From: Escherichia coli O127:H6 str. E2348/69
GTDB lineage: Bacteria > Pseudomonadota > Gammaproteobacteria > Enterobacterales > Enterobacteriaceae
NCBI RefSeq assembly: GCF_000026545.1
Contig: NC_011601.1
Strand: one strand, 5' to 3'
DNA: 64,000 bases
Shown here in pieces: positions 41,955-44,630 of this stretch. Made by a program: the position numbers and the translations under genes. Under the pieces are notes generated by a model. That model saw only the letters and a list, made by a program, of their open reading frames with translations. It had not been told where the DNA came from and searched no databases. Every line of letters begins with the position of its first letter. Within the stretch, counting starts at the first letter, position 1.

Positions 41955-42770
41955 ATGTTTTCAATTCAACAACCACTACTGGTTTTTAGCGATCTTGATG
42001 GCACCCTGCTGGACAGTCATAGTTATGACTGGCAACCGGCAGCCCCCTGGCTCAGCCGTTTACACGAAGCCAATGTTCCCGTCATTCTCTGTAGCAGTAA
42101 AACTTCAGCGGAAATGCTGTACTTGCAAAAAATGTTGGGGCTACAAGGCTTACCGCTGATTGCAGAGAATGGCGCAGTGATCCAGCTTGCTGAACAATGG
42201 CAGAATATAGACGGTTTTCCACGCATCATCTCAGGTATTAGCCATAGCGAAATCTGCCAGGTTTTAAATACGCTACGCGAGAAAGAACATTTTAAATTCA
42301 CGACTTTTGATGATGTCGACGATGCAACCATTGCCGAATGGACGGGATTAAGCCGTAGCCAGGCGGCGCTGACGCAGCTGCATGAGGCGTCGGTAACGCT
42401 AATCTGGCGCGACAGTGACGAGCATATGGCACAATTTATCGCTCGCCTGAACGAACTGGGCTTGCAGTTTATGCAGGGTGCGCGCTTCTGGCACGTACTG
42501 GATGCCTCTGCCGGAAAAGATCAGGCTGCCAACTGGATTATCGCGACCTATCAACAATTGTCAGGCAGACGCCCAACCACACTTGGCCTGGGCGATGGGC
42601 CAAACGATGCGCCTTTACTGGAGGTAATGGATTACGCGGTGATTGTGAAAGGGCTAAACCGTGAAGGGGTACATCTGCATGATGAGGATCCGGCCCGCGT
42701 CTGGCGAACGCAGCGTGAAGGACCGGAAGGCTGGCGTGAAGGGCTGGACCATTTTTTCTCCGCCCGTTAA
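41955..42770 (+). CDS. yedP: HAD-family mannosyl-3-phosphoglycerate phosphatase-like protein YedP (271 aa)
   Basis: Track [29 protein letters not shown]... (HAD motif I DLDGT). Confidence 0.9.
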
Positions 42771-44460
42771 GCGTTATCGCTCGCGAATACCCGATTGCGC
42801 CCGGCCTGTTTTGCGAGGTAAAGCCGACGGTCGGCCAATGACTGGAGTTGTTCAAAATCATAATCACCGGTTTCCTCGCTGCTGCTTACCCCCAGCGAGG
42901 CACTGATGCGTATCGTTGTACTCTTGGCGATCAGCATCTCTTTTTCATTTAACTTCAGGCGAATACGTTCTGCGACCTCCGCAGCCTGCGTCAGATTCGC
43001 GCCTGGCAGAATCACACAAAACTCCTCACCACCGACCCGCCCGGCAACGTCCTGCGCACGCAAGGAACTGCTAATTAATCCGGCAGCATGAGAAAGAACA
43101 CGGTCGCCCACCTGATGACCAAAGCGGTCATTAATCGCTTTAAAATGGTCAAGATCGACCTGAATGACAGAAAATGGAGTTGGTGCATCTGACACAATTT
43201 AGCGAGCGGACGGGCTTTTTCGAACAGTGCGCCACGGTTATATAAACGCGTTAAGGTGTCGTGCCACGCCTGCCACTGCAACGAGCTTTGCAGAACATAC
43301 ATGTTGCTGACCATCCGGCGAATCACATACCAGGAGAGGAGTAACATGGTGGTAAAGAGCGCCCACAGCAGGGTTAATGCAATGCTGATACTGCCGAAAT
43401 CGCCGCGCACGCCTTCGCTTAGCGTATGGACGCGCACCAGCACACCGTCGAAATGGTCCAGACGTTCCCAGCTAACATAGCGACTGTCAATACGAATGCC
43501 GCCCCGCGTGTCATGTTCCATTGCCTGCGCCAGCAAGGCCAGTTCACGAGGATCAAAAATATTCCCTGTTGGATGGTCAGGATTGGAAGAGGTCAAAAAT
43601 CTCAGCTTACCGTCATAGAGCTGATACTCACCATCGAGGTTTTTATCGATGGCGTTTCTTAAAAATTGCTGCATAGTACGCACGGGAATACTCATCCCCA
43701 GCACGCCATACCAGTAGTTATTACTGTCTACCGGAACGCTGACGGTAACCTGCGGTTCAGTATTGCTGGCGTGTTCCGGTTGCGAAGTGAACCAGCGTAC
43801 CGCGCGGTGACGATTTTCTCGTTGCGAATGACCGATAAACCAGGGTTGGGTGACATAGCCGTAATAACGCGTTGGTACATTGCGCGTAAACAAGGTCGGC
43901 TGCGTCGAAACGTAAAATCCAGCACGCGAGACATACATCGCCTGTTCAACCATCGACGAGGAGTTGTGCGCCAGTCGCAGCAAGTAACCAACTTCCAGTG
44001 CAGCGGTAATTTCATTGTCGAGGATTTCATTTTCGCGAGACAGGAGATTCCCCTCGCTGACTAATGCATCCGATACGCCATTGACTGGCAGGGTGCGCCG
44101 TCGGTTGAGTTCGATTTGCCAGGCGTGCTCGTCGCGATGCTGTTCGAACTCGGTTACGGCATTACGCAGAGAGATGAAATCCAGTGGCGCCACGAGAGCT
44201 TCGCGCATGCCATTACGCAAAAAGATCAGTTTGTCGACGTTATACTGCAAATGCTTATCGAGCGCGTTGGCTACGTTTTCCAGATGATTACGCTGGCTGG
44301 AGATATAGGCATCTTCCAGCACCACCACTTCACGCCAGGTGAGCAAGGTGGAAAAAAGCAATACCACGATAAAGCAGAGATTAACGACATGACCAGGCCC
44401 CAGGCGGCGTGCGAGTTTTTTCAACCAGCTCTGGTTTTCCATTTTTGTCTCGTGCTGCAC
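42767..44460 (-). pseudogene. dgcQ: Diguanylate cyclase DgcQ/YedQ with a frameshift inside the GGDEF domain near 43178-43181
   Basis: Track ORF 43075..44475 carries the sensor region plus the start of GGDEF (…[22 protein letters not shown]) then runs out of frame; track ORF 42767..43195 holds the rest ([21 protein letters not shown]…RVGGEEF…). The two halves overlap by ~120 bp in different frames. Confidence 0.75.
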
Positions 44461-44630
44461 CCTGACGACTCCCAACCTGCTTTTTTATGATTCTGGCATA
44501 ACCCGGCGATAGCGTACCGCAAAACAGCGATAATTTTATAATGGTGGCATGATAAGACGCGACTATCATTCATTGCAGGCATTGGGACACCAGGCCGGAT
44601 GTGATCCGGCCTGGTGTTAATGATACCCTT

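Follow-up and report, generated by a model that had tools for sequence, protein, structure and literature searches.

The locus described here raises the question whether the diguanylate cyclase gene dgcQ (yedQ) of Escherichia coli E2348/69 (EPEC O127:H6), which is divided between two reading frames, can still serve as a source of c-di-GMP or has decayed to a pseudogene. DgcQ (YedQ) of K-12 is a CHASE7-GGDEF membrane cyclase, and the gene in E2348/69 lies at the same locus and has the same order of parts, i.e., a transmembrane segment (TM), CHASE7, a second TM and a GGDEF domain with the motifs RAQD and GGEEF. The name given to DgcQ by RefSeq is 'cellulose biosynthesis regulator'. E2348/69 is a reference EPEC strain, and work on its c-di-GMP, biofilm, cellulose and motility should count one predicted-dead diguanylate cyclase.

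The DNA that was analysed, called the window in the following, is a stretch of 64,000 bases and is the exact reverse complement of positions 2018719-2082718 of NZ_CP059840.2 (E2348/69, EPEC O127:H6). All positions are window positions if not stated otherwise, and the dgcQ frames, domains and motifs lie on its minus strand. That dgcQ is frameshifted in E2348/69 is already known, the gene being flagged 'pseudo, frameshifted' by RefSeq in CP059840.2, LT827011.1 and LT903847.1. The 2016 paper of Povolotsky and Hengge and the 2009 paper of Iguchi et al. probably list the dgcQ pseudogene of E2348/69. The literature searched, which left out these two papers, contained no paper mentioning dgcQ in E2348/69.

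Identity of the gene and site of the deletion

The gene can be identified as the dgcQ/yedQ orthologue by its neighbourhood and by alignment: it is flanked by yodC on one side and by the convergent yedP on the other, an arrangement which is the same in E2348/69, in a K-12 derivative and in other strains, and it differs from the K-12-derived allele of ET12567 by 42 nucleotides over 1695 aligned nucleotides in a full-length alignment. This comparison with K-12 dgcQ, which a preliminary description of the window had proposed as a check, confirmed the frameshift.

RefSeq sets the limits of the pseudogene at 42767..44460, with a GTG start at 44460 and the native-frame stop at 42767-42769. The gene has a length of 1694 nt in the window compared to 1695 nt in intact alleles, and alignment to the closest intact alleles places the deletion of a single nucleotide between 43179 and 43178, in agreement with the junction at about 43178-43181 that had been described. 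The missing base is one A at gene nt 1283 in codon His428, turning CAACATCC of the intact alleles into CAACTCC in the window. In the intact alleles the lost A is flanked by C and T and the deletion site is therefore not a homopolymer, as the preliminary description had also stated.

The two overlapping ORFs in different frames which had been reported for the minus strand are both present. The longer one starts from TTG (43075..44475) and encodes 466 aa in the ORF list, and the downstream one, which is in the native frame (42767..43195), encodes 142 aa from a GTG at 43195. The gene extent of 42767-44475 given in the preliminary description is correct in so far as the ORF from the TTG at 44475 exists, but the RefSeq start is the GTG at 44460, from which the upstream frame (43075..44460) runs over 461 codons before it ends with a TAA at 43075-43077. 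Intact dgcQ alleles have 564 codons and K-12 dgcQ is one such single frame, whereas the window allele, which is without the A at nt 1283, stops after codon 461 and continues in another frame with the overlapping 142-codon ORF. An uninterrupted dgcQ ORF of ~564 codons was sought in the window and was not found, and the gene is therefore assigned as a pseudogene of the dgcQ/yedQ family. The native residues run to ...KLCQMHQ (residue 427) and are followed by 34 out-of-frame residues; the frame is thus split as had been claimed, but the native part is three residues longer than the end at ...KLCQ that had been given for it.

Domains of the predicted products

The domain truncation caused by the deletion can be read from the DNA itself. 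The periplasmic sensor domain CHASE7 (Pfam PF17151, E = 1e-93) covers residues 41-227 (43780..44340) and is retained in the 461-aa product. Two hydrophobic stretches were called at a Kyte-Doolittle score >1.6 in a 19-residue window, the first comprising residues 20-49 (44314..44403) and the second residues 355-380 (43321..43398). They flank the periplasmic region of DgcQ and represent the putative segments TM1 and TM2, a membrane role that is suggested by their hydrophobicity.

Intact DgcQ contains a complete GGDEF domain (Pfam PF00990) at residues 398-557, matching model positions 1-161, whereas the 461-aa product matches model positions 1-31 only, with E = 0.2. The part of the domain left in the upstream frame comprises residues 398-427 (43180..43269; Pfam model positions 1 to about 30), and it is followed by the out-of-frame tail of 34 codons (43078..43179), which is hydrophobic with a mean Kyte-Doolittle value of 1.19. 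The 142-aa ORF matches GGDEF model positions 30-161, and in neither of the two ORFs did Pfam find the whole GGDEF domain on a single chain. The aligned deletion and the Pfam break at about model position 30 of 161 bear out the claim that dgcQ is frameshifted within its GGDEF domain.

The conserved motif codons at 43127..43159, which include Asp436 and the region of the guanine-contacting Asn/Asp, lie in the native frame. The RAQD (RxxD) inhibitory-site codons (43049..43060), a motif given for dgcQ in Table 1 of PMC11327459, and the GGEEF active-site codons (43019..43033) are found in the native downstream frame only. Asp436 aligns with the metal-binding Asp of the solved GGDEF domains, in which the motif, RAQD and GGEEF are conserved as well. 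In PleD the metal is bound by the first Asp of DxD, which by alignment corresponds to D436 here. The codons for D436 and D438 are both located 3' of the break, the 461-aa product contains no GG[D/E]EF motif, and the metal-site Asp of DxD was not found on one chain together with GGEEF and the N-terminal helix. With CHASE7 and two putative TM segments retained and GGEEF out of frame, the product described earlier, one that keeps the sensor and the membrane region and loses GGEEF, is also the one predicted here.

We propose that one A was deleted from dgcQ codon 428 in the lineage leading to E2348/69, at a place that would correspond to the loop joining the first helix and the first strand of GGDEF. 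Translation from the normal start would then result in a 461-residue membrane protein composed of CHASE7, both TM segments, 30 GGDEF residues and 34 nonsense residues. This product would be without the metal-binding Asp, the RxxD I-site and GGEEF and for this reason could not make c-di-GMP, and the remaining catalytic codons would lie in the other frame with no credible route to a complete translated domain. Due to the truncated product and the lack of a credible translation of these codons, dgcQ in the window is with high confidence regarded as an ordinary loss-of-function pseudogene, by which DgcQ would be lost as a c-di-GMP source in E2348/69. We infer from this the loss of DgcQ enzyme activity; cellulose, biofilm or motility may be affected as well, as the preliminary description had cautiously suggested for c-di-GMP-dependent phenotypes. 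The annotation of E2348/69 shows an intact bcs locus (bcsRQABZC, bcsEFG, pdeK/hmsP, pdeH), so that the cellulose machinery is present. For K-12-derived strains, it was reported that plasmid-borne DgcQ can switch on cellulose synthesis by increasing the global c-di-GMP pool (PMC7397504).

Possible translation of the catalytic codons

Ribosomes translating the upstream frame might slip by -1 at the heptamer T_TTA_AAG (43138..43144), aided by a hairpin, and thereby produce a full-length 564-aa DgcQ with some function kept, which we consider unlikely. No other heptamer in the overlap, i.e., between the deletion and the upstream-frame stop, has the phase required for a -1 slip from the upstream frame, and U_UU.A_AA.G belongs to the motifs that are efficient in E. 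coli (Sharma et al., 2014; PMC4066793). Furthermore, a hairpin with a 6-bp stem, a 5-nt loop and -7.1 kcal/mol (43115..43131) begins 6 nt 3' of the heptamer, where stimulatory structures usually begin at a distance of 5-8 nt (PMC4066793). However, the best heptamers shift only at about 0.3% if no strong stimulator is present (Sharma et al., 2014; PMC4066793), and both heptamer and hairpin consist of conserved motif codons that are present in every intact allele and thus give no hint of selection for recoding. Moreover, the trans-frame 564-aa product would be altered in residues 428-440, which form the first beta-strand, and with D436I and D438T the alterations include the DxD that is conserved in the catalytic site; the product should therefore be catalytically dead. 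The two-frame arrangement was not found to be kept among relatives: it is present in 3 of 5426 genomes, which are E2348/69-derived, plus strain N25, and the rest have the extra base. As a rescue of function, -1 slippage was rejected: slippery motif and weak hairpin are there, but a protein made in this way would be without the DxD residues.

Some full-length trans-frame protein may nevertheless be made via the slippery heptamer and the weak hairpin. It would retain CHASE7, the two putative TM segments and the RAQD I-site, and a scaffold role is conceivable for it on these grounds. A scenario can be drawn in which low -1 slippage at T_TTA_AAG yields an inactive full-length DgcQ that acts as a c-di-GMP-binding or dominant-negative scaffold; separately, nt 1283 might be a hotspot of mutation in view of strain N25 (see below). 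We regard this as a long shot. T_TTA_AAG, which arises incidentally from the conserved HFK codons, and the hairpin (43115-43144 together) have the phase for a -1 slip in the frameshifted allele only.

Less probable still is a functional split enzyme, in which the downstream GGDEF fragment would be made on its own and still produce c-di-GMP, as reported for degenerate diguanylate cyclases of Shigella. The Shigella pseudogenes of dgcQ, dgcE and dgcN, which have premature stops, were shown to increase c-di-GMP upon over-expression and to give two protein products (PMC11327459), and the label 'pseudogene' alone is therefore no proof of inactivity. The 142-aa ORF of the window also contains the DxD motif, RAQD and GGEEF. 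However, the lesion in dgcQ of Shigella and EAEC is a nonsense codon that precedes an intact GGDEF and is adjoined by a Met codon, whereas E2348/69 has a frameshift within GGDEF, leaving the 142-aa ORF without model positions 1-29; a layout of the Shigella type, with a stop before GGDEF and an adjacent in-frame start that would give the whole domain, was not found in E2348/69. The fragment is also without the N-terminal membrane and sensor module, the expected source of the dimerisation that GGDEF cyclases require (PMC13131220).

The possible starts in the native frame argue in the same direction. A Shine-Dalgarno-like sequence is missing in front of the GTG of the 142-aa ORF at 43195 and of the starts at 43111 and 43063. 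Among the native-frame restarts, the GTG at 43015 alone has such a sequence; it begins after GGEEF, and its AGGAG is supplied by the GGEEF codons themselves. From this GTG runs the ORF of 82 aa which was chosen by the gene caller downstream of the break. Internal restart as a rescue was rejected, as the starts that keep GGEEF are without Shine-Dalgarno sequence and the start at 43015 comes too late.

Origin and spread of the deletion

The reading of dgcQ as a loss-of-function pseudogene presupposes a real deletion, and this was judged on assemblies and contigs. The dgcQ sequence is identical in the three complete E2348/69-derived assemblies CP059840.2, LT827011.1 and LT903847.1. At least 80% of dgcQ was matched in 5330 of 5426 complete E. 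coli genomes, and all near-identical alleles that were aligned are one base longer, the E2348/69 records excepted, which speaks against the split being a chance pattern. The exact 81-nt junction is present in only three of the 5426 complete genomes, all E2348/69-derived. In the indices of NCBI, ENA and Logan, the exact 461-aa product was found on 87 contigs (138 index blocks), many of these short draft contigs. The protein repaired by restoring the A (Ile146, 564 aa) is commoner than the broken one and is found intact on 235 contigs (478 blocks); this allele P0031 (e.g., LR778142.1, GCA_014582805.1) has an uninterrupted 564-aa ORF and its protein is identical to that of the window once the A is restored.

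The closest intact neighbour locus differs from the window by four SNPs and the gap over 7.7 kb. In Z1323HEC0423, dgcQ differs from the window allele, the deletion apart, by one SNP, giving S146I. The G-to-T exchange at window position 44024, which causes S146I in CHASE7, is also present in the intact allele on 235 contigs.

The metagenome contig L012 carries the same deletion together with three more rare states of the window (44558 G, 44525 G and 41932 A), and it has differences of its own, i.e., seven SNPs and one 4-bp indel over 11 kb. The rare states common with the window and the SNPs and the indel of its own point to inheritance of the deletion in a wild close relative rather than to a laboratory stock. 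The allele of this contig (P0047, Ser146 plus deletion) was considered as a third independent origin, and this was ruled out by the three other rare states that it has in common with the window. L012 has the ancestral G at 44024 despite carrying the deletion, and its Ser146 may be due to reversion, recombination or metagenome chimerism.

Based on the three assemblies, the 87 contigs, L012 and the repaired allele in near relatives, the dgcQ deletion is judged to be a recent and real event in the E2348/69 lineage. That dgcQ is really intact and the base was dropped by an error in sequencing or assembly, for which single-base indels are the commonest kind, is hardly credible and was rejected, as the site is not a homopolymer, three separate complete assemblies have the identical sequence, the truncated protein comes from several sources including short-read drafts, and the related yet non-identical L012 has the same deletion; the preference of the preliminary description for a real mutation over a read error is supported by these data.

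Decay of dgcQ in other strains

The identical A at nt 1283 is also deleted in dgcQ of strain N25, an unrelated CSF isolate (NZ_CM165897.1; L007:1801-1881). Its allele differs from that of the window at 45 positions, including SNPs on either side of the deletion, 9 nt upstream and 4 nt downstream, and unlike the window allele it is additionally interrupted by a stop at codon 312; no other of the 5426 genomes has the junction of N25. The differing SNPs on both sides ruled out that the deletion came to N25 by recombination, and it is, as judged from the sequence, of independent origin. The deletion at the same site could be a coincidence or reflect a local mutational hotspot at a non-repeat site. 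The neighbourhood of dgcQ in N25 contains several IS3-family elements and other pseudogenes.

The same gene is inactivated in pathogenic lineages, i.e., in Shigella flexneri 2457T and in EAEC (PMC11327459, which cites Povolotsky and Hengge, 2016, on the dgcQ pseudogenes of Shigella and EAEC), showing that dgcQ is lost repeatedly. For S. flexneri dgcQ, PMC11327459 contradicts itself: its Table 1 gives the stop at 56 and the Met at 59, and its Discussion gives the stop at 312 and the Met at 314; dgcQ of N25 fits the 312/314 pattern of the Discussion.

A survey of dgcQ decay in 59 other complete genomes, taken as an evenly spaced sample, revealed length-changing lesions in four, all of which are flagged 'pseudo' by RefSeq. 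These dgcQ pseudogenes have their lesions at other places than E2348/69: W12-1 has a -1 and CFSAN018748 a +1 change in the A6 tract of codons 14-15, LR-58-1 has an additional T at nt 1547, and B2.3 has a 3' deletion reaching into yedP. As dgcQ is shortened by one base in this tract in W12-1 and extended by one base in CFSAN018748, the A6 tract seems to be a place where dgcQ slips repeatedly, or where assemblies err repeatedly. It corresponds to window positions 44416-44421 and is intact in E2348/69. Overall, a few percent of E. coli genomes carry a broken dgcQ; that of E2348/69 adds to the lineage-specific losses of this gene, which are frequent in E. coli and Shigella, and raises no new question.

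Other gene remnants in the window

Several further genes of the window are incomplete. The lipoprotein gene yedD (25337-25749) is also annotated by RefSeq as a frameshifted pseudogene in E2348/69. The gene araH (about 439-1050), encoding an arabinose ABC transporter permease, is annotated as incomplete with its C-terminus missing, and it is adjoined by the transposase gene of ISEc13 (IS4-like; about 1-274), which suggests that an IS insertion truncated araH. A fragment of an integrase gene is present between fliE and yedL (28978-29118). Finally, a remnant of an invasin-domain gene (60466-61360), which is frameshifted, has an internal stop and is missing both ends, adjoins a tRNA-Asn and a gene for a family 9 glycosyltransferase and looks like what is left of a decayed island that had occupied a tRNA-Asn site. 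N25 has an integrase gene and the yersiniabactin gene ybtS just beyond a tRNA-Asn.
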